Positions 19,104 through 29,096 of a stretch of 42,412 bases of DNA are shown in pieces. Each line of letters starts with the position of its first letter. The stretch's first letter is position 1. Below the pieces are notes generated by a model. It did not search any database and had not been told where the DNA came from. It worked only from the letters and a program-made list of their open reading frames with translations. The position numbers were made by a program, and so were the translations under genes. The stretch spans positions 1-42,412 of the forward strand of contig CAZIEL010000001.1 in assembly GCA_964538165.1 (NCBI GenBank), given 5' to 3'. The stretch comes from an uncultured archaeon (GTDB lineage: Archaea; Iainarchaeota; Iainarchaeia; Iainarchaeales; JAAZKV01).

Positions 19104-21152
19104 ATGATAACTTCCCTAACTTTACAAAACTGGAGAACGCACTCTCAAACAACACTAGAGTTTGGAAAAGGAACAAACGTAATTGTTGGAGTAATGGGCT
19201 CAGGAAAAAGCTCAATAGTTAACGCAATTAGTTATACTCTTTTTGGAAGCTTCCCCTCGCTAAAAAACAGAAGTGTTACGCTTGAAGAAATAATAATGAA
19301 TAAACCAAACCAACAAACAAGAACAGAAACCGGACTTACTTTTGAACAAGATGGAAAAAAATACAAAATTGAAAGAATAATAAAAAAAGATGGAACAAAC
19401 GAAGCAAAACTATATGAAGATGCTAAATTAATTGCGGGCCCAAAACAAAAAGATGTTAATGAAAAAGTTGAAAACCTACTCGGGCTTAATTATGAATTGT
19501 TCTCAAGAGCAGTTTATTCTGAACAAAATGAAATGGACTTCTTTTTGAAACTATCTCCAAGCGAAAGAAAGAAAAAATTTGATGAATTGCTTGAACTTGA
19601 AAAATATGAAGAAGCAAGAAAAAACTCTGTGACACTCCAAAATGACATTCTTAAAGAAAATAAACAAAGAAAAGAATTTATTGAACAACAAAAACAAACA
19701 ATCAAAAGCCACGAAGAAGAAAAACTACTAAAACAAATAGAAGAAGAAAAAAGAGCAATAGAAGAACTCCATAAGGAAATTGAACAAGTAAAAAAAGAAA
19801 GTTTGTTTATCGAAAAAGAATACACTTCTCTTTTTGAAAAAGAAAAGCAAAACAAAATGCTTGAAGACCTTTTTATTAAAATTAATTCAAAATTAGAAAC
19901 CCTAAAAGAAGATATTGCAAAAAGTGAAAAGATTTCCCTAAATGAAGTGGAAGAAGAAAGCAAAAAACTAAAACAAGAACTTATTGTTCTTAGAGAAAAA
20001 CAAATCACAATTGAAAAAACCCACAAAGAGCTGGATATGCTAGTTAAAAAAAACGGAGAAGAAAGAAAAGTTAATGAATATGAGAAAAACAAATTGATTA
20101 TTGAAGAAAAAGGATTAGCAGGATTAAAAGGAAAATGTCCGACTTGCAAACAAGAAATGGATGAAAACCATAAAGGACACTTAATTAAAGAAATTAAAGA
20201 AAAACTAACAATTTGCGAAACGAACATAAAAGAATTTGAAGAACAAAAAAAAGAACTTGATGAAAAAACCAGTAAAGCTGAAAGAGAAAGGGACACATTA
20301 AGAAAAGATATTGATGAAAAAAACAGGATTTTGTTTAAACTAGAGGCCAGCACAAAACAAGCAATGGAAACTGAGATTAAAAAGAAACAATTTATCGAGC
20401 TTAGTGAAGAAATACCCAAAGTAAAAAAACAACTTAACGAACTTGGATTTGATAAAAAGAAACTTGAGACGATTCGTGAAGAATTTTACAAAAAAAAGAG
20501 AGTCTTAGAAGTGGCCGAAATCAAAGCCAAATCAAAAGAGGAAATAAAAAAGAGTTTTGAAGATATCCTGCAAAAAACCTCCAAAATAAAGAAAAGCATA
20601 GAAGAACAAGAAAAACAAGTACTACGCGCAGAAGAAGCGGCAAAAAAAATGAGCGTATTTGGAAACTGCTTAATTGCTACCCAAGTGGAACTAAGAGAAT
20701 CAATGCTTGAAACAATAAATCAAGCAATGACCAATATTTGGGGAGCAATTTACCCTTATAATGATTTTACTGACGCACGACTTTGTGTTGTTGAAGAAGG
20801 GTATGATTTACAAGTACAAACCAGATCAAACGGGTGGGTAAGAGTGGAAGGAATACTTTCTGGAGGAGAAAGAAGTGCTGCGGCATTATGCATTAGAATT
20901 GCCTTTGCACTTGTTCTTACCAAAAAACTATCTATGATAATACTTGATGAACCAACACACAACCTTGACTCAAATGCAGTTACAAAATTAAGTGAAATGT
21001 TAAGAGAAGAAATGCCAAAACTTGTAGAACAAATATTTGTAATAACTCATGATAAACAACTTGAAAATGCAGCAAGCAGTAATCTTTACTTGTTAACAAG
21101 AAACAAAGATAATGATGAATCAACGAAAGTTGACCAAATTCAAACTTACTAA
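19104..21152 (+). CDS. rad50: Rad50 DNA double-strand break repair ATPase (compact, 682 aa)
   Basis: N-terminal Walker A GVMGSGKSS, a long heptad/charged coiled coil with a central CxxC zinc hook (KCPTCKQ, nt 20136-20147), and C-terminal signature LSGGE plus Walker B IILDEPT. Confidence 0.9.
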   Translation: MITSLTLQNWRTHSQTTLEFGKGTNVIVGVMGSGKSSIVNAISYTLFGSFPSLKNRSVTLEEIIMNKPNQQTRTETGLTFEQDGKKYKIERIIKKDGTNEAKLYEDAKLIAGPKQKDVNEKVENLLGLNYELFSRAVYSEQNEMDFFLKLSPSERKKKFDELLELEKYEEARKNSVTLQNDILKENKQRKEFIEQQKQTIKSHEEEKLLKQIEEEKRAIEELHKEIEQVKKESLFIEKEYTSLFEKEKQNKMLEDLFIKINSKLETLKEDIAKSEKISLNEVEEESKKLKQELIVLREKQITIEKTHKELDMLVKKNGEERKVNEYEKNKLIIEEKGLAGLKGKCPTCKQEMDENHKGHLIKEIKEKLTICETNIKEFEEQKKELDEKTSKAERERDTLRKDIDEKNRILFKLEASTKQAMETEIKKKQFIELSEEIPKVKKQLNELGFDKKKLETIREEFYKKKRVLEVAEIKAKSKEEIKKSFEDILQKTSKIKKSIEEQEKQVLRAEEAAKKMSVFGNCLIATQVELRESMLETINQAMTNIWGAIYPYNDFTDARLCVVEEGYDLQVQTRSNGWVRVEGILSGGERSAAALCIRIAFALVLTKKLSMIILDEPTHNLDSNAVTKLSEMLREEMPKLVEQIFVITHDKQLENAASSNLYLLTRNKDNDESTKVDQIQTY

Positions 21153-21862
21153 AAACCCAAAATGTTTCTAACTCTTTTTAATTCATCTTTAATTTCACTA
21201 ACTTTTGAGAAAGGCATGTCTTCCTCAATTACAATTGGAACATCTAACTCCAAAATTGGCTCAATGGAACTTAAAAATGAGCGACCAACTTTTTTGAACG
21301 GAAAGTGATCCCTATGATATCGATTGTTACTAAAATGAACTTGCTTTATTCTACTCTTCCACTTGCCAACAATATATTCGGTTTCTCTTGTTGACCAATC
21401 ATAAGCATGACTAACATCCAAACACAAGCCTAAATCTGAATTATCACGTAATGCGAGCTCAAATCCAAGTCGGGGCCTATTTTTTCCTTTCTTGGGATTA
21501 AGATTCTCTGTTAAAAAATTCAAAGAAGAAATTTTTATAAAATCTTTTGGAAAAATTTGAACTGGATGAGTTATAATGTGTGAAGACCTAATTTTTTTAG
21601 AATAATCCTTTAAGATATTTAACCCATCAATCATTTCTTGCTCAGACATATATTTTAAACTAAAAAGAAAAGGAGAATGAATGCCATTAAATTTAAAACT
21701 TTTCAAAATATCAAATTGAGAGTCATTTAATTTTCTTTCATTAAAATCTTTTCCAAGAGTTAACTCAACCCCATCAACATCCAAAGAACTAATTATCTGA
21801 AAAATATCTTGCTTTTTGATAAGTTGACGCAAATTTCCTGTCGCAAAACAAAGCGCTCGCAT
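21149..21862 (-). CDS. xylose isomerase-like TIM-barrel protein (sugar phosphate isomerase/epimerase / AP endonuclease 2 superfamily)
   Basis: The spacing of conserved His/Glu/Asp segments (GIHSPF, HIITHP, LTENL, LCLDVSHAY, VHFSNN..DH) is typical of this fold. Its stop overlaps the rad50 stop by 4 nt on the opposite strand. Confidence 0.55.
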   Translation of the reverse strand: MRALCFATGNLRQLIKKQDIFQIISSLDVDGVELTLGKDFNERKLNDSQFDILKSFKFNGIHSPFLFSLKYMSEQEMIDGLNILKDYSKKIRSSHIITHPVQIFPKDFIKISSLNFLTENLNPKKGKNRPRLGFELALRDNSDLGLCLDVSHAYDWSTRETEYIVGKWKSRIKQVHFSNNRYHRDHFPFKKVGRSFLSSIEPILELDVPIVIEEDMPFSKVSEIKDELKRVRNILGF

Positions 21863-21902: not shown

Positions 21903-22109
21903 TTATTTTAATTTATCTGCTTCTTTTCTTTTTGCAAGTCTAACAATATAGCCTGCTAAAATATTTCTATTAGTTTTTGAAAGCTTAAGATCTTGCATTG
22001 TGTTTAATTCTTTTTTATTCTTATCAAACTTGTCCCCAAACTTTTCTGGAAACTCTTCAAGAAGAACTTCTCCTTCATACTTTATTTTCTTTGCAATTGA
22101 CTTACCCAT
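21903..22109 (-). CDS. rps17e: 30S ribosomal protein S17e
   Basis: MGKSIAKKIK...EEFPEKFGDKFDKNKKEL......RNILAGYIVRLAKR matches the archaeal S17e pattern. 68 aa. Confidence 0.8.
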   Translation of the reverse strand: MGKSIAKKIKYEGEVLLEEFPEKFGDKFDKNKKELNTMQDLKLSKTNRNILAGYIVRLAKRKEADKLK

Positions 22110-22124
22110 TATATCACCAAAAAA

Positions 22125-22334
22125 TTATTCAAATAATTCTATTCTCTTTAACTTACCATTAGGATATTTTCTCAGAATACTTAAAGGCAAAACTTTTTGA
22201 GCCATCTCTTTTTCTGCTACTTCAAGCATATCGAGTTCGCTAGTTCTTTTTACTAAAGGGGGTGCCCCTAAAGATAATTGTAGAGCTCTAGCTGAGAGAA
22301 CCCTAGTAACCTCAAATCTTGTAAACCTTACCAT
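22125..22334 (-). CDS. rpoK: DNA-directed RNA polymerase subunit K (Rpo6/RpoK)
   Basis: MVRFTRFEVTRVLSARALQLSLGAPPLV is the conserved Rpb6/RpoK core. The ORF extends to 22367, but the Met at 22334 (preceded by GGTGG) matches family N-termini. Confidence 0.8.
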   Translation of the reverse strand: MVRFTRFEVTRVLSARALQLSLGAPPLVKRTSELDMLEVAEKEMAQKVLPLSILRKYPNGKLKRIELFE

Positions 22335-22416
22335 TAAGCCACCAGTAACATAATTCATCAAAAACAACCTTTAAAAACTTAGCTCCAAAGGGTCAAAAAT
22401 TGCTAAAAAGAGAATT

Positions 22417-24024
22417 TTAGGCAAAACCCTTAACTAGGTGGCTACTAAACCCAGCTATTTGGGGCTGAGGAAGGTTTTGAGCCATAGCAAAAGATTTAGC
22501 CAATTTTAGAGAAGAAGTGCCTTTTATAAAAGCACTTTGTTTATTTGCATGCAAAACCCTATAACCTTCATTTTCTGAGAATTCTTTAAACTTAGAAAGA
22601 GTGGCTTCTTGAATGGAAATAATGGATCGAGCCAATTGAGTAGAAAAAAAGGATGAACTTTGGCTAGTTAATTGATTAGGAAGTTCACTTAACACTTGCG
22701 AAATCACAGAATACAAAGCAACATCATAATAATAACCAAATTCTTTAATTGAAAACAAATTTGATTCATAAAAATCAATTCTTTTTCTTAAATTAAATAA
22801 ACTAGAATTTGACTCTCTAACTTCTCTTGAAAAAAAACTTTCTTTGTTTAAGCAAAACCAATTTAGTTTGTGATTTGCATCATCTGAATTCCTGCTTGAA
22901 ACCAAAATTGCTTTATTCTCAGAAATTAACCTTTTAGCATCCATTAGCGGAACTAAAACAAAATCGTTCCTAAAAAAAGGGCCAACAGGAAAAGAATTTA
23001 AAAAAAAATCTCTTTTCTTTTGAACTCTGAGTTCTTTCATTTCATTTTCTTCGTGGTAATCTCTCGCAAAACTTTCTGAAGAAGACTCAAAAAAAGAATT
23101 GTCTTCATTAAACTTAATTTTTATTAATGAAGAAGGAAGTAAATTCTTTGAATCCAAAGTAACTGGTTCACAACAAGAACAATTTTTTGTTTCAGGCCCA
23201 ATATTGAAAAAATTGTTTGAGAAAAGATCGGCCCAAATTCTTGAAAAATCAATTTTTGAAAGAACTTCATTCTTACTTCCAATTGGCTCAAACCCAACAC
23301 TTGAAAATATCTTCTCGGATTTATCAAAAGTGATTGGTTCTCCGTGTTTAAAGAAACATTTTTCCAAATACAATTCTACTTTTTCTTCTCTTGATTTGGG
23401 AATTTGTTCCATTGAAACAGAAAGCAAATGACTCCATGCCGCAAGTTCAACTAAATATAATGAATCTTCTTTATTTACCCTTAATGCTTCTTGAAATGAA
23501 ATTTCTTTTGTGAGAAAAAAGCCAAGATCTGCACCCTCCCCAATTTTTTGCACTAAATCTTGACTGTTTTCATCACAAAGAGGATTAGTATAATAAAGCA
23601 CGCCGTCTATTTTTTTAAAAGAATCAAAATAAGACCAATTTTTTTCAACTAAAAAAGATTTTTCTGGCCCAATCACAACAAATTTTTTGTTAATATGCAA
23701 AGCTAAGGCATTACTAATCTTTTTTAAATCCGAAAAATTTAGGGTCCTTAATTTTAGGAAATTATTGTCCTCCTCAACACTAAAACCCTTAAAACCCAAA
23801 GATAAAATTAAAGTTGAAAGCTTTTCTTTTTCAATTGAGCTTGAAATCAAAATAAAAGGAAAAAACTTGTGTCGTTGAACCATTCTTTCTTTTGAATTAG
23901 AAAATTCTACTAAAACCTCATGTTTGGATTCATTGTAAGAAACTTTTGTTAAGTAAAGCAAATCATTTTCTTTTGATTGAGCTTGCGTAACGCTATCTAG
24001 ATTACTCTCTATGTGTTGGGACAT
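22417..24024 (-). CDS. family B DNA polymerase-like protein, truncated and predicted catalytically inactive
   Basis: By-eye alignment to archaeal PolB finds four matching segments. The N-terminal domain pattern is LYLTKVSYNESKHEVLVEF...HKFFPFILI. A motif A-like segment is KIDFSRIWADLFSNNFFNIGPET, versus [20 protein letters not shown]. A motif B remnant is EFGYYY. The pre-motif C helix plus motif C is ARSIISIQEATLSKFKEFSENEGYRVLHANKQSAFIKG, versus [41 protein letters not shown], so DTD becomes NKQ. The protein ends about 40 aa later, so there is no thumb and no KKRY. No Exo I-III motifs are seen. Confidence 0.5.
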   Translation of the reverse strand: MSQHIESNLDSVTQAQSKENDLLYLTKVSYNESKHEVLVEFSNSKERMVQRHKFFPFILISSSIEKEKLSTLILSLGFKGFSVEEDNNFLKLRTLNFSDLKKISNALALHINKKFVVIGPEKSFLVEKNWSYFDSFKKIDGVLYYTNPLCDENSQDLVQKIGEGADLGFFLTKEISFQEALRVNKEDSLYLVELAAWSHLLSVSMEQIPKSREEKVELYLEKCFFKHGEPITFDKSEKIFSSVGFEPIGSKNEVLSKIDFSRIWADLFSNNFFNIGPETKNCSCCEPVTLDSKNLLPSSLIKIKFNEDNSFFESSSESFARDYHEENEMKELRVQKKRDFFLNSFPVGPFFRNDFVLVPLMDAKRLISENKAILVSSRNSDDANHKLNWFCLNKESFFSREVRESNSSLFNLRKRIDFYESNLFSIKEFGYYYDVALYSVISQVLSELPNQLTSQSSSFFSTQLARSIISIQEATLSKFKEFSENEGYRVLHANKQSAFIKGTSSLKLAKSFAMAQNLPQPQIAGFSSHLVKGFA

Positions 24025-24091: not shown

Positions 24092-25630
24092 TCACAAGAA
24101 GGCATTTATTTCGTCTTCCTTTTTCTTTTCATCAGATTGGAAGGCTTTTGCAGCATCTTCTAAAGTGGATTCATGACGACTTGGTTGAGATTTACGCAAT
24201 CTCACTTTAAAGAAAGTTGGGGCACTAACTGCTTCACCAACAATTAATGCTTCTCCAACCCTAAGTGAAGAAATAATTCCAATGCTTGATTTATCTAAAC
24301 CTTCAGAGGATTGAGAAATGTGATCAAGATCGTAAGGGTTAGTAATTCTTAGAATAATATTTGTGTTACAATTTGCAAGAGTTGTTGTATCAAGTCTTTT
24401 TGGTCGTTGAGAAATTACTACAAGTGAGGCTCCAAACTTTCTACCTTCTCTTGCAATAGTTCGTAAGTATGAACGCGCAACTGCATGATCGGCTGCAACC
24501 CCCTCAGGAATAAAATTATGCGCTTCTTCAACAAAAAGAGCAAACGGAGGAATCTTCCTAGAGTGCCCTCTCCTCTCATGAAATAATTTATTTGATAAAT
24601 AAGCAACAAGCACCTGCTTTTTCTTTTCAGAAACAACATTATTCAAATCAATCACAAGCAAATTGCCCGGTTTTACTAAATCAATTACACTAGGCTCATC
24701 AATTTTTGAAAAAAGATTTAATTCTTCAAGTTCTGCAAGCACACCAAATAATGAACTCTGAGTCTTTTCATTTTCAATTGTTTTAATCTCTGCTCTAATT
24801 GCACTCAAGTCAAACGGGCCTGCACCAGAACGCATTTCATCATTTAATCTTGAAAGAATTACTGCAAGCGCCCTTTTTTGGGTAGGGGAGAGTTCAACAA
24901 TACTTGAAAGCATGTGAACATTCACCTTTGAACAAGCAATTTTAATTTTTGACCCATCAATAATTTTTGTAACTGAAGAAAAATCCTTAAACTTTGAAGA
25001 ATCACTTTGTTTTACTGGCTCACCAAAACAAGTATATTCTCCATGCGTATCAATAACTACTACTCCAATTTGACCCTGTTCTTTTTTTCTGGAGAGAAGC
25101 TCTTCTAAAAGAACACTAACAAAATAAGATTTTCCTGCTCCACTAGTTGCAACAATTGCTAAGTGTTTTTGAAGCATTTTAGAAAGATTTACTTTAAGAT
25201 CAACATCATGAAACTGAAGTTTGCCAAGCTCAAGCCCATCAATTTGTAACCCCAAAAATTTCTTTATCTTTTCATTATCAGCAGTATAAATTTTTGTTCC
25301 AGGAGAGGGAGGAAAAGTGGGTCTTTGAATCAAGTTATCTTTAAACACACCAAGTGGTTTGGCATTTGCAATTAAAAATTCCCATTCAGCAGCAGGAAAA
25401 TTCTTTTCAAGTTCTTCTCCCATCACTTTAACTGAATCGGGTCGCTCAAAATAACGGTTTGTTTTTATTACATCCTCAACTAAAAGCATCATTGTTCCTT
25501 CAGAATATTCTAATTCCACAAACATTCCTTTGTGAGCTTTGCCAGCATTAATTACAAAAGAAACTGTTGAAGGAGAAGGACCTTCCATTGTTGAAACAAC
25601 TGTTCCTAATTGATCACGCATAAACATCAA
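24092..25630 (-). CDS. herA: HerA DNA helicase/translocase (FtsK-HerA superfamily ATPase)
   Basis: N-terminal HAS-barrel-like region, Walker A ATSGAGKSY and Walker B LFVEEAHNFIP, with REGRKFG and ISQRP segments typical of HerA/DUF87. 512 aa. Confidence 0.9.
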   Translation of the reverse strand: MMFMRDQLGTVVSTMEGPSPSTVSFVINAGKAHKGMFVELEYSEGTMMLLVEDVIKTNRYFERPDSVKVMGEELEKNFPAAEWEFLIANAKPLGVFKDNLIQRPTFPPSPGTKIYTADNEKIKKFLGLQIDGLELGKLQFHDVDLKVNLSKMLQKHLAIVATSGAGKSYFVSVLLEELLSRKKEQGQIGVVVIDTHGEYTCFGEPVKQSDSSKFKDFSSVTKIIDGSKIKIACSKVNVHMLSSIVELSPTQKRALAVILSRLNDEMRSGAGPFDLSAIRAEIKTIENEKTQSSLFGVLAELEELNLFSKIDEPSVIDLVKPGNLLVIDLNNVVSEKKKQVLVAYLSNKLFHERRGHSRKIPPFALFVEEAHNFIPEGVAADHAVARSYLRTIAREGRKFGASLVVISQRPKRLDTTTLANCNTNIILRITNPYDLDHISQSSEGLDKSSIGIISSLRVGEALIVGEAVSAPTFFKVRLRKSQPSRHESTLEDAAKAFQSDEKKKEDEINAFL

Positions 25631-25662
25631 CTAATCCAAATGTCATATAAAAATACCTCTTA

Positions 25663-25680
25663 GGTAACTTGCCGGTGATC
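25663..25680 (-). promoter_or_regulatory. shared promoter-proximal element (GGTAA-C-TTGCCGGTGAT) upstream of herA
   Basis: 33-50 nt upstream of the herA start at 25630, just distal to a TATA box (coding strand GGTATTTTTATATGA). Confidence 0.45.
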
Positions 25681-25882
25681 ACTTCAACCCAAATTTAATT
25701 TGTCTTTTTTTAACATTCCTTTTTCTAGTATTAACCATTCTTAATTGTCTTAAAGACTTAGCATCTTTAAGCAGTTTTAGGGCAAGTTGTTTTCTTTTAA
25801 TTGACATCCCTGAACGCATGAGTATTGCGTCAGCATCCAAAAGGGTTTGCCGAACCCGATTCTCTAAATTATTTTCTACCAT
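25679..25882 (-). CDS. hypothetical small basic protein
   Basis: The 67-aa ORF overlaps the HAD gene stop by 14 nt and ends 48 nt before herA. Its position in the operon is the only support. Confidence 0.3.
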   Translation of the reverse strand: MVENNLENRVRQTLLDADAILMRSGMSIKRKQLALKLLKDAKSLRQLRMVNTRKRNVKKRQIKFGLK

Positions 25883-26540
25883 TTAACACACCAACCACTT
25901 TTGGCAACTCAAAGAGGGATTTAATTTCAAATTCGGGTTTTATACTTGCATAATCAATTACTTTTCCATTTCTATTAATTAAACAATTGTGCATTCCAAC
26001 ATTTTTTGAGCCGGTTATATCACTACGTAAAGAATCCCCCACCATTATTGCTTCGTTTGGTTTAACTTTAAGTTTATTCAAAATTGTATTAAACGCCACC
26101 GGATCAGGTTTGATTGTTTTTATCTCAAAGCTATAAACAATTTTGTCAAAATAAGTCGGCAAAGAAAGTTTGTTTTCAAGTTCTTTTGATTTAAGACTCT
26201 CAGTATTTGAAAGCAAACCAAGTTTAAATCCATCCGACCTAAGCTTTTTTAGAAATTCCCTAACATCAGGAAAAAAGTTTATTTTATCAAAACGATTAGT
26301 ATAAATTTCATTAATCTCTTCTTGCAACAATACGTTGGGTTCCTCACTAAAAGCATTAAAAAAATCTCCTTTTAACTCTTCAAAAGATTTATATTGTTTT
26401 AATTGAGTGGCAAGTTCATATCGTTCAATAAATTCTGGGAGAGACGCGTGATCTTTTTTTGCTAACTCTGTTAACCTTCCAAAATCAACTGTTGCAGGAA
26501 TTAAGGTATTCCACAAATCAAAAACAATTGCTTTAATCAT
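25869..26540 (-). CDS. HAD-superfamily (subfamily IA-like) hydrolase
   Basis: Motif I VFDLWNTL (nucleophile Asp present, but the D+2 position is Trp), motif II LLSNT and motif IV VGDSLRSDITG. 223 aa. Confidence 0.8.
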   Translation of the reverse strand: MIKAIVFDLWNTLIPATVDFGRLTELAKKDHASLPEFIERYELATQLKQYKSFEELKGDFFNAFSEEPNVLLQEEINEIYTNRFDKINFFPDVREFLKKLRSDGFKLGLLSNTESLKSKELENKLSLPTYFDKIVYSFEIKTIKPDPVAFNTILNKLKVKPNEAIMVGDSLRSDITGSKNVGMHNCLINRNGKVIDYASIKPEFEIKSLFELPKVVGVLNGRK

Positions 26541-26670
26541 CTTTTGCCCCTCTTTAATTTTCTTGCAATTCTTGCCTTTTTCTTTTCAGTTCGACCTCTT
26601 AACACAGAACCCAAATTGTTAAGCAAATATTTTCTATTGGCAGCAATAACTGCTTCAGGTTCTTTAGACT

Positions 26671-27296
26671 GCATAAAATGAATCCTTGAAAGTTCTTGCA
26701 TATCTTTTGCAAAGTATGCTCTTCTTCTTTCTGCTTCAAGTTTAGAGTTAGATAAAAATACTTTACGCGGAAGAGCACTCATAAATCTTCTATTAACTAT
26801 TGTTCTTTCTCCCTTTGAAGAAAGAATTTGCCCAAGTGCATTAGCATGCATTGAACCAACAACAACATAAACTGGTTTTCCTTTTTTTGCATTAATTGTA
26901 TTACGAATAATTGAAGCCATATTCTCTTCACGCTTAATGCTTGCGCTTGTAACCCAAAGGAAACGATCAAAATCAGATTTTATTCTATTTACTCCTTTCA
27001 TGAAAGAATATTCTGAAGAAAAAGTTTCAAGGTTAATTACCTTAAATGCTTTTGATCTTGCAACATCAGCAAGTTCAATTAACGAAGAAAAATTTGAGAA
27101 CAAAACATTCAAGTACTTGTCACCATACATTCGTTTTGCCCTTGCAACATTCTCAGCCAAATACTTTGGAGGAGAAACTTTAAGCAAGCTATTATTTGCA
27201 TGAGCCTCCCCAACCGCAAGAGCAAAATCAAAAAGTTCTTTACTCCCTTCAACACAAACCGTAGATCCATTCGGGAGAGAATGCAAGTACGAAAGT
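26671..27296. repeat. tandem direct repeat, copy 1 (626 bp)
   Basis: Identical base-for-base, by eye, to 27297..27922. The antisense ORFs 26937..27203 and 27563..27829 give identical 88-aa translations. Confidence 0.9.
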
Positions 27297-27922
27297 GCAT
27301 AAAATGAATCCTTGAAAGTTCTTGCATATCTTTTGCAAAGTATGCTCTTCTTCTTTCTGCTTCAAGTTTAGAGTTAGATAAAAATACTTTACGCGGAAGA
27401 GCACTCATAAATCTTCTATTAACTATTGTTCTTTCTCCCTTTGAAGAAAGAATTTGCCCAAGTGCATTAGCATGCATTGAACCAACAACAACATAAACTG
27501 GTTTTCCTTTTTTTGCATTAATTGTATTACGAATAATTGAAGCCATATTCTCTTCACGCTTAATGCTTGCGCTTGTAACCCAAAGGAAACGATCAAAATC
27601 AGATTTTATTCTATTTACTCCTTTCATGAAAGAATATTCTGAAGAAAAAGTTTCAAGGTTAATTACCTTAAATGCTTTTGATCTTGCAACATCAGCAAGT
27701 TCAATTAACGAAGAAAAATTTGAGAACAAAACATTCAAGTACTTGTCACCATACATTCGTTTTGCCCTTGCAACATTCTCAGCCAAATACTTTGGAGGAG
27801 AAACTTTAAGCAAGCTATTATTTGCATGAGCCTCCCCAACCGCAAGAGCAAAATCAAAAAGTTCTTTACTCCCTTCAACACAAACCGTAGATCCATTCGG
27901 GAGAGAATGCAAGTACGAAAGT
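27297..27922. repeat. tandem direct repeat, copy 2 (626 bp)
   Basis: Head-to-tail with copy 1, offset exactly 626 nt. At most 1 nt (T) of junction microhomology. Confidence 0.9.
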
Positions 27923-27998
27923 AAGTCATGATGAAGAGCTTTCTCTATAGCATGACTCCAAGGAAGAATTTCAATACTTGTTCTAATTGTCATTAACT

Positions 27999-29096
27999 TC
28001 ACCCAAAAGGACGATTACTTCTTCGCATTCTAACTTTTGACCCCAATCGATCAACCAATCTATCATAAACAATACTAATATCCTGTTCATTTAAACCTGC
28101 CCTAAGGTCGGCTTCAATTAAAACGCTTGGAAAAGAATATTCTTTATGCAAAGAACTCAAAGAATACACAATACTTGCAATATTTTGGACACACTCAAGA
28201 AAGTGTCCAGCATTTTGAGAATTATTACAAAGAAATTCCACTCTTAAGGGTTTATCAAATTCAGTAGATTTAATATAAAAAACAAAAATGTTTTCAGCCC
28301 ACTTTTTATCATAATCTTTTAGAATAGCATGACTAACAATTTTATTTGTATACGGAAAAGCAAATGTTCGTTCACCCGCCCGCAAATAATAATCCAACAA
28401 AGAAGCATCAAAAGAATTTTTTAATAAACTTGCATCAACCTTTAATGCAGAATTTGGGAGAATTTCTTCTTGAAGAATTTGTTTAAATCTTGCCCCCCTA
28501 GAATCTTCAACACAAGCAACCAAAGAACAAGAATATTCTTGAGCAACACCATACAACTTCTCAAAAAGATCAATAATTGAATAATACTCATCATTAAGTT
28601 CAGACTCAGTTCTGGGTTTATCTTGATATTGCGGAACAATACTCCCATCAATAAACATAAACTTTGGTTTATACTTTTGTATCATTTCAATTGAACACGA
28701 AACCTCTGCCTTTAACCTAACAAGAGAAAGACTTTGAGTTTCTTCATCAGCTTCAAGACCCGAACCAAGCAAAACTGGTTCCGGCAAAGAAAATGCAGCA
28801 GGATAATAATCAGTTTTAACTAATTTACCCCCTTCATAAGTAAATAAAACCCCCGCGGTTTTTATTATTGCAAGATCAATAAAAGAAAGTTTTTTGTGAA
28901 TAAAACCAGAATCCACTCCAGCAACAGCCCCAAAACAATCTTTTTTATTGACTCCAACTACAATCGTCTCGAGTTTGTTTGGAGCACTCACACTTTTCAA
29001 CCCCTGCAAAAGAAGAGAAAGTCGCTCATTATAATTGTGTCTTTGGTTAATAGCAGAAACTGCAGTTTCAAAAAAATCTTTAAACACTAATCTCAC
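27999..29096 (-). CDS. nurA: NurA 5'-3' nuclease
   Basis: 365 aa with a GTG start. It has NurA-type catalytic segments (AGVDSGF, MFIDGSIVPQ, ACVEDSRG) and lies in the same neighbourhood as herA and rad50. Confidence 0.85.
   Translation of the reverse strand: MRLVFKDFFETAVSAINQRHNYNERLSLLLQGLKSVSAPNKLETIVVGVNKKDCFGAVAGVDSGFIHKKLSFIDLAIIKTAGVLFTYEGGKLVKTDYYPAAFSLPEPVLLGSGLEADEETQSLSLVRLKAEVSCSIEMIQKYKPKFMFIDGSIVPQYQDKPRTESELNDEYYSIIDLFEKLYGVAQEYSCSLVACVEDSRGARFKQILQEEILPNSALKVDASLLKNSFDASLLDYYLRAGERTFAFPYTNKIVSHAILKDYDKKWAENIFVFYIKSTEFDKPLRVEFLCNNSQNAGHFLECVQNIASIVYSLSSLHKEYSFPSVLIEADLRAGLNEQDISIVYDRLVDRLGSKVRMRRSNRPFG

Follow-up and report, generated by a model that had tools for sequence, protein, structure and literature searches.

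A probable DNA-end-resection gene cluster of the archaeal phylum Iainarchaeota, with a variable slot between nurA and herA

We analyzed a 42,412-nt contig (CAZIEL010000001.1; the window) from an uncultured archaeon of the DPANN phylum Iainarchaeota (Diapherotrites), in which the genes for the NurA nuclease and the HerA translocase are separated by an HAD-family hydrolase gene, a gene designated gene X, and a small basic open reading frame (ORF). This region is probably, with a likelihood of about 0.6, the standard DNA-end-resection gene cluster of the phylum, in which the HAD protein would be a dedicated accessory of the NurA-HerA operon. We rate what is new here as a lineage-specific layout of the known NurA-HerA system, with a context-specific HAD subfamily. 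A first-pass annotation made from the window alone had called the layout non-canonical; the same layout turned out to be the norm across Iainarchaeota. The genes that carry the argument are as follows.

nurA, 27999..29096, minus strand: 365 aa; 5'-3' nuclease of the NurA-HerA end-resection pair; Pfam NurA (PF09376)
HAD-IA hydrolase gene, 25869..26540, minus strand: 223 aa; motif I FDLWNT; D-x-W subfamily
herA, 24092..25630, minus strand: 511-512 aa; hexameric DNA translocase; Pfam DUF87/HerA, E 8e-31
p535, 22417..24024, minus strand: 535 aa; directly downstream of herA; no Pfam match
rpoK, 22125..22367, minus strand: RNA polymerase subunit Rpb6/K; Pfam RNA_pol_Rpb6; in conserved synteny
rps17e, 21903..22109, minus strand: Pfam Ribosomal_S17e; in conserved synteny
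rad50, 19104..21152, plus strand: 682 aa with a CPTC zinc hook; Pfam AAA_23, SMC_N and Rad50_zn_hook; NCBIfam Rad50, 194 bits

Gene order around nurA across Iainarchaeota

The comparison set comprised 80 species-level genome loci around nurA, seeded with NurA and taken with ~10-kb flanks, which were annotated by profiles made from the window proteins. One order recurred in essentially all of them: nurA, a variable slot, herA, a 535-aa PolB-like gene, rpoK and rps17e, followed on the opposite strand by rad50 and EF1-beta. In 70 of the 80 loci herA followed nurA in the same orientation, and the contigs of the remaining 10 stop <1 kb past nurA; counts given below for the slot and for downstream genes refer to the 70 loci having herA. 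The 535-aa gene came next after herA in 56 of these. A convergent rad50 followed herA in 51 loci, with rpoK and rps17e usually lying before it and EF1-beta beyond. Between the stop codon of herA and that of rad50, the median distance was 2.74 kb.

The window conforms to this order. nurA and herA are on the same strand 2.37 kb apart (1.74 kb minus a duplication described below), and are likewise co-oriented in 70 of 70 informative relatives; rad50 is convergent with the herA gene string, ~2.9 kb from herA, and is preceded by EF1-beta. The first-pass annotation had correctly placed rad50 on the opposite strand with rpoK, rps17e and a TIM-barrel gene in between, but its list of genes from herA to rad50 omitted the 535-aa ORF (24024..22417). 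We propose that the backbone of nurA, slot, herA, PolB-like 535-aa gene, rpoK, rps17e and convergent rad50 ~2-3 kb off would have been inherited across the phylum, and that the slot between nurA and herA may gain and lose genes, holding three in the window's clade.

Pfam and NCBIfam scans upheld the identities first assigned to NurA, HerA, Rad50 and the HAD protein. NurA scored 23 bits against a Pfam cutoff of 21 bits and had 419 homologues, many of them bearing the NurA name, Ca. Iainarchaeum included. Hundreds of homologues were 42-69% identical to it, the named ones being from Candidatus Iainarchaeum/ainarchaeum or unclassified archaeal metagenome-assembled genomes, and residues invariant across 29 homologues were all kept in the window protein. 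The best NCBIfam models for HerA were those of double-strand-break-repair HerA, with scores under the equivalog cutoffs, and GAGKS and EEAH motifs were visible in its translation. NurA and HerA would, judging by homology, form the nuclease-translocase pair that resects DNA ends 5'-3'.

Two further observations concern the backbone proteins. Many relatives have herA ORFs of 2.5-4.4 kb (e.g., L012 7970-11323, L037 12306-15755, L089 7714-11091); the product of the last of these contains Intein_splicing and LAGLIDADG domains, and the window herA is intein-free. Rad50 has 682 aa compared with ~880 aa in reference archaeal Rad50 models, which implies a short coiled coil; Walker A, the CPTC hook, the signature motif and Walker B are all retained. 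Among related loci that reach beyond rad50, most have EF1-beta as the gene upstream of it.

An HAD subfamily tied to the nurA-herA slot

The HAD protein scored 90 bits against Pfam HAD_2 and 87 bits against Pfam Hydrolase, and 54 bits against NCBIfam HAD-SF-IA-v1 (cutoff 23.3 bits). Every named equivalog or subfamily NCBIfam model scored it under cutoff, and the closest solved structures were generic archaeal HAD-IA proteins (4ygq, PH1655, PH0459). Alignment to PH1655, whose motif I is FDLDDT, bore out the first-pass reading of motif I as DLWNT with Trp at D+2; the motif thus departs from the phosphatase-type pattern DxDx(T/V). F-D-x-W-x-T was invariant in all D-x-W-type slot orthologues, and motifs II (SNT), III (KP) and IV (GDSxRxD) were conserved, the window protein having LLSNT, KP and GDSLRSD. 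HAD proteins that lack Asp at D+2 include dehalogenases (DxYGT), phosphonatase (DxAGT) and P-type ATPases (DKTGT).

The link to nurA and herA was checked independently by a metagenome scan seeded by the HAD alignment and not by NurA, which yielded 39 D-x-W-type loci and 41 other HADs. Among informative loci, i.e., those having enough flank for the given side, nurA preceded the D-x-W HAD gene in 28 of 29 and herA followed it in 33 of 36. The corresponding counts for the other HADs were 0 of 28 and 1 of 33, the lone case being a 5'-truncated HAD fragment. These other HADs mostly had DxDDT, DxGDT or DxGNT as motif I and were 26-42% identical to the window HAD over partial matches; D-x-W members at just 29-33% identity were still in the slot (L129, L130, L132). 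The D-x-W HAD is a subfamily essentially specific to nurA-herA operons, and its gene persists while other slot genes turn over; this is the best evidence of a functional tie. The first-pass annotation had proposed that both HAD and gene X belong with nurA. The neighborhood analysis showed a strong linkage for the HAD gene and a poor one for gene X, which was found in 2 of the 70 loci and has some copies unlinked to nurA; homologues of both do recur beside nurA elsewhere.

Context and motifs together suggest that the D-x-W HAD would be a dedicated accessory of the NurA-HerA operon. It would most likely act on DNA-end phosphate groups or on nucleotide products of resection. Because the general acid is missing, the chemistry is taken to be altered, and aspartyl-phosphate turnover may be slowed or cap-assisted.

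Several considerations weigh against this proposal. With the D+2 acid lost, the HAD protein could be no phosphatase at all, and its role is read from context and motifs. All D-x-W HAD loci are apparently in one phylum; if the gene entered once, long ago, and was then passed on vertically in a highly syntenic genome, the association could arise with no functional link. rpoK, rps17e and EF1-beta are equally syntenic though clearly unrelated. In addition, the occurrence of three phosphatase folds in the slot (D-x-W HAD, second HAD and PTP-like) and of distant gene X copies at the same position fits the functional module of the first-pass annotation better than pure hitch-hiking, an alternative considered in the next section.

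The variable slot between nurA and herA

Slot length ranged from 0 to 3555 nt, and 6 loci had herA immediately after nurA. When slot ORFs were clustered and scanned against Pfam, the following families emerged; several others were without any annotation.

HAD with motif I D-x-W: 27 of 70 species-level loci
Zinc-ribbon protein of ~60 aa just before herA: 25 of 70
PTP/DSP-like phosphatase fold: 8 of 70; CX5R loop intact in 3 of 9 members only
135-aa PIN-domain protein, mostly paired with an 81-aa partner (VapBC-like): 7 of 70
Second HAD, motif I DxGGV: 4 of 70
HGSNAT-type membrane acyltransferase: 3 of 70
Gene X: 2 of 70
Thymidylate synthase: 1 of 70

The VapBC-like pair, the membrane acyltransferase and the thymidylate synthase indicate that the slot takes cargo plainly unrelated to repair. 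This bears on a different account of the locus, namely that the nurA-herA spacer of a compact genome is simply tolerant of insertions and that HAD and gene X are housekeeping or accessory enzymes with no part in repair (phosphatases of sugar phosphates or of the nucleotide pool, for example), which just share a transcript with nurA and herA. Consistent with such hitch-hiking are the mixed cargo of a slot of up to 3.5 kb, the equal synteny of the unrelated rpoK, rps17e and EF1-beta, and the fact that the named NCBIfam models nearest to the HAD protein are generic phosphatases and nucleotidases, all scoring under their cutoffs. The spacing of genes is also no help in telling partners from passengers: coding density in the window is ~91%, and 16 of 35 same-strand neighbor pairs, unrelated genes included, are ≤20 nt apart. 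Tight spacing is thus general in the window, which weakens the argument from translational coupling by which the first-pass annotation had inferred joint work of the inserted genes with NurA. What pure hitch-hiking accounts for poorly is that an HAD subfamily with its own invariant motif has kept its exact position down to 29-33% identity, was not found elsewhere, and persists where other slot cargo turns over. We regard hitch-hiking as an unlikely explanation, and favor an accessory role for the D-x-W HAD.

Other features of the slot families may be mentioned. The 81-aa ORF and PIN gene (a VapBC-like toxin-antitoxin pair) occupy the slot of ~7 species (L042 1269-1893; L051; L053; L057; L081; others). 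The PTP/DSP-like gene is directly 3' of nurA in 8 species (L050 11011-11550 (AR10); L005 7442-7987; seven others); just 3 of 9 members keep the Arg of the CX5R loop, and all finish in a conserved RRR-type basic tail. The zinc-ribbon protein (CPxCGS...CxxC) abuts herA in an HAD-less Iainarchaeota clade (L040, L050, L054 and ~24 more loci). K/R-rich C-terminal tails occur on unrelated slot proteins, namely gene X, the PTP-like and zinc-ribbon proteins and the small post-HAD ORFs (window 25679-25882 and 26537-26600); these tails could be a common binding peptide or mere compositional bias.

Gene X, a probable divergent TraB/Tiki-like protein

Gene X lies between nurA and the HAD gene and is interrupted in the window by a tandem duplication.

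Gene X, 26537..28002, minus strand: TraB/Tiki-like, 276-279 aa if intact; split into ORFs 28002..27109 (297 aa) and 27286..26537 (249 aa)
Tandem duplication, 26670..27921: two perfect 626-bp copies (26670-27295 = 27296-27921) inside gene X, with a 1-nt junction overlap

The two ORFs overlap and have ~200 identical residues in common. As 626 is not a multiple of 3, the duplication shifts the reading frame, and the gene calls on the window contig are wrong at this point; the single 279-codon gene of the first-pass annotation is therefore broken in the window as assembled. Collapsing the duplication restores exactly 279 codons, and the collapsed sequence is identical to a 276-aa gene in two contigs from two other JGI (Joint Genome Institute) samples, L001 and L088. 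Identity to the window is 99.97-100% for L001 (11.2 kb) and 100% for L088 (14.6 kb read of an 18.5-kb contig); both contigs lack the duplication and have gene X intact. Since the duplication is absent from otherwise identical contigs, it probably stems from misassembly or is a rare variant. Positions 1-176 of L001 have no match to the window and may reflect a contig-end artefact or a local rearrangement. One of just two single-nucleotide differences between L001 and the window over 7.5 kb falls at window position 27954, where L001 encodes Tyr in place of the near-invariant His of PWxH. Taken with the duplication, this change hints at relaxed constraint, and gene X looks dispensable or decaying in the window's population. 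The start of the gene was also revised: a 4-nt overlap with nurA, as first annotated, needs a GTG start, but the family alignment and gene callers prefer the ATG at 27993, in which case nurA and gene X are 5 nt apart.

Gene X has few relatives. A full HMMER search of 1.84 billion representatives gave only 21, and word-indexed protein searches, run with the gene X product and its profile, found just near-identical proteins plus two others. The family pattern is PWxH...H...E...R(E)...GxxH with a K/R-rich C-terminus. Across the 21 representatives P11, W12, P32, R146, G171 and H174 are invariant; H14, H21, E40, R146 and G171-x-x-H174, which show little or no variation, come in the order expected for a 2His/2Glu (+Arg) site. 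The TIKI superfamily has a catalytic set of two His and two Glu plus an Arg (PMC6254334).

An AlphaFold2 model built on the family alignment had a predicted local distance difference test score (pLDDT) of 89.9 and five predicted beta-strands. Against viral models (BFVD), its sole significant match was a TraB family protein (E 5.1e-4, probability 1.0, TM-scores 0.34 and 0.42), which lends some backing to the Tiki/TraB/ChaN-like call of the first-pass annotation. Other comparisons were below significance. All matches of the family to Pfam were sub-threshold (TraB_PrgY_gumN, E 0.0011; DUF5682, 0.0054; ChaN, 0.013; DUF5694, 0.02). Foldseek of the model against the Protein Data Bank (PDB) found nothing below E 0.1, the highest-probability matches being EreC and BcR135 of the erythromycin-esterase branch (E 0.5-0.6), and sequence and profile searches of PDB chains found nothing significant (best, ribose-5-phosphate isomerase, E 1.4). 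On this model, gene X is predicted to be a divergent TraB/Tiki-fold putative hydrolase that would form a new branch of TraB-like proteins. Its three-helix C-terminal region (residues ~194-273, window ~26537-26800) gave a non-significant match to the Vps4/Vps4B MIT domain (E 0.4-0.7).

The distribution of gene X is patchy. At least five lineages have it in the interval from nurA to the D-x-W HAD gene (that of the window, L001 and L088, and those of L005, L019, L039 and L089). Further metagenome loci with gene X in the slot (L094, L102-L105) in some cases duplicate these five. The window's closest NurA relatives are without it. Slot copies of gene X are 23-28% identical to each other, compared with 59-65% for NurA, 49-57% for HAD and 67-80% for HerA. 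Unlinked homologues sit beside genes for a methyltransferase, RtcB and archease (L007), lysine biosynthesis (L091) or an AsnC-type regulator (L004). Gene X would accordingly enter a scheme of the locus as a fast-evolving TraB/Tiki-fold putative hydrolase of few lineages, with a basic C-terminal tail and at most a weak link to resection.

Is Mre11 replaced?

The first-pass annotation found no Mre11 ORF in the window and suggested that the two inserted genes might replace or supplement Mre11-type end processing. The observation held. Window ORFs ≥200 aa, scanned against Pfam directly or via hits on identical L001 genes, included no Metallophos/calcineurin-like phosphoesterase, and GNH[DE] occurred in none of the six frames of the window. 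No candidate emerged from an Mre11 motif search covering every ORF in 88 loci, where GNH[DE] occurred in just two ORFs, both cysteine desulfurases, and no Mre11 was found within 10 kb of nurA in the 80 species-level loci. Gene X, the HAD protein and p535 were themselves considered as Mre11-type phosphoesterases and rejected, as none had a Metallophos match and the conserved residues of gene X and p535 misfit DxH, GDxxH/D and GNHD/E.

The suggestion fared less well. On this reading, the HAD and TraB/Tiki-like proteins would make up an Mre11-independent end-cleaning module for NurA-HerA (and Rad50), replacing or supplementing Mre11; a hydrolase or protease might, for example, strip adducts from ends and a phosphatase take off blocking phosphates. 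The lack of mre11 within 10 kb of nurA, the restriction of the D-x-W HAD gene to the nurA-herA slot, the recurrence of three different phosphatase folds there, and the shared position in several lineages of gene X copies only 23-28% identical are all in keeping with such a module, and the 3'-phosphatase domains of PNKP and T4 PNK have the HAD fold. However, absence of mre11 from the flanks covered, within 10 kb of nurA, is part of the phylum-wide gene order and is no evidence that slot genes replace it. Most loci without a nearby mre11 have neither HAD nor gene X: ~60% lack a slot HAD gene and likewise lack mre11 nearby, and gene X is present in 2 of 70 species. A replacement role is further undercut by the apparent dispensability of gene X in the window's population, which has one broken copy and one mutated at a near-invariant His. 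In addition, the HAD protein is without the general acid used by DNA 3'-phosphatases, and the slot carries unrelated cargo too. We consider the module improbable.

A more sweeping version is that Iainarchaeota lost Mre11 and keep Rad50, NurA and HerA, with blocked ends being cleaned by slot phosphoesterases (the D-x-W HAD, the second HAD and the PTP-like protein) and, in some lineages, by a TraB/Tiki hydrolase with a DNA-binding tail. This is a long shot; if true, it would mean an Mre11-independent route into homologous recombination. Should Mre11 be absent from these genomes, they would be a natural test case for Rad50, HerA and NurA working without it. Should mre11 lie elsewhere in the genome, the gain would be a modest one in annotation, i.e., a context-specific HAD subfamily and a TraB-like branch.

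The small basic ORF upstream of herA

The interval between the HAD gene and herA holds a further gene.

Small basic ORF, 25679..25882, minus strand: 67 aa; in the HAD-herA interval; 14-nt overlap with the HAD gene; also called in L001 and L088

The overlap with the HAD gene was already in the first-pass annotation. K/R-rich ORFs of ~47-109 aa are at the same position in most HAD-clade loci having both HAD and herA; they overlap the end of the HAD gene and finish at or just before herA. An iterative search with the 67-aa ORF found no similarity to the same-position ORFs of relatives, and the zinc-ribbon family found before herA in other loci has no homology to it. A small basic protein upstream of herA would thus be conserved in position and not in sequence. 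In the window, a 48-nt spacer containing a TATA-like TTTTTATAT separates the ORF from herA, which the first-pass annotation had given a promoter of its own. That claim comes down to this TATA-like string: the small ORF abuts herA in relatives, and in several of them it overlaps the herA start by 4 nt, which argues against a universally separate herA promoter.

p535, the TIM-barrel gene and the possibility of a defence island

The p535 family has a CxCC...C cluster that is invariant in 20 orthologues, plus several invariant aromatic and charged residues. Five of 20 members matched NCBIfam DNA polymerase II models (best E 1.5e-4), and the top matches of the p535 profile in the PDB were all family-B polymerases, over motifs B and C (E 0.2-0.6). 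The catalytic Asp-Thr-Asp (DTD) is lost. A single-sequence structure model had a pLDDT of 35 and was uninformative. From these faint similarities, p535 is probably a family-B DNA-polymerase-like protein that has become inactive. Inactivated PolB groups are covered by a review (PMC7544198).

One gene near rad50 is outside the common order.

TIM-barrel gene, 21149..21862, minus strand: 237 aa; variable insert in the rps17e-rad50 interval; weak Pfam AP_endonuc_2 match

Its stop overlaps the rad50 stop by 4 nt, and among the nurA-seeded loci its position beside rad50 is shared with L012, L019 and L022 only. Along its whole length the protein resembles PDC-M70B, a defence candidate of PADLOC (E 2.4e-16); its matches to AP_endonuc_2 and CbiR are weak.

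This resemblance raises the idea of an anti-phage defence island built on HerA, with the variable genes as effectors or sensors. HerA does match PADLOC HerA models (177 bits), and the variable slot can hold a toxin-antitoxin pair. However, the top scores of HerA are to double-strand-break-repair HerA models, and the cluster belongs to the core gene order of the phylum, set among housekeeping genes, and is no island. The PADLOC scan led us to reject the defence reading, as five cluster proteins (NurA, gene X, HAD, the 67-aa ORF and p535) were without a match; it can hardly be right.

Comparison with known systems

The nearest known relatives of the D-x-W HAD are in the HAD-IA group of TIGR02253, PH0459 and 2-haloacid-dehalogenase-like proteins (4ygq, 2hoq, 1x42). 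The HAD fold with a C1 cap, the Asp nucleophile, the motif II Ser/Thr, the motif III Lys and the motif IV GDSxxxD are common to both. The D-x-W subfamily differs in having an invariant Trp, not Asp, at D+2 and in being confined to the nurA-herA slot.

Gene X may resemble the TIKI/TraB/PrgY/ChaN/erythromycin-esterase superfamily in its predicted alpha/beta fold with five strands and in the order of conserved His, Glu and Arg residues and GxxH (PMC6254334). Unlike these proteins, it has PWxH in place of the usual N-terminal GT(x)H, and an additional C-terminal helical region with a K/R-rich tail. p535 is like inactivated archaeal PolB (PolB2-type) in its weak but repeated motif B/C similarity and its loss of the catalytic DTD; its similarity is far under family thresholds, and it has an invariant CxCC...C cluster of its own.

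NurA-HerA has been studied almost exclusively in hyperthermophiles, where the genes are in one operon with those of Mre11-Rad50. The four-gene herA-mre11-rad50-nurA operon has been described for hyperthermophiles (PMC2288612, PMC7690668), so that the first-pass attribution of it to most archaea was too broad. DPANN archaea were noted in a comparative study to have generally few repair genes (PMC8407392). Our full-text literature search found nothing specific on Mre11, NurA or HerA in DPANN, Diapherotrites or Iainarchaeum, and no account of the cluster in DPANN or Iainarchaeota. A whole DPANN phylum with a different and stable layout offers several leads, namely the HAD subfamily, the phosphatase-fold genes, the PolB-like gene and Rad50 without an adjacent Mre11.

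Set against the Sulfolobus and Pyrococcus operon, the Iainarchaeota cluster shares the co-stranded NurA nuclease and HerA (DUF87) ATPase, with a zinc-hook Rad50 nearby. mre11, in contrast, was not found within 10 kb of nurA in any of the 80 related species. Here nurA comes first and herA after it, 1-4 accessory genes separate the two, and rad50 is convergent ~3 kb off, behind the PolB-like gene, rpoK and rps17e.

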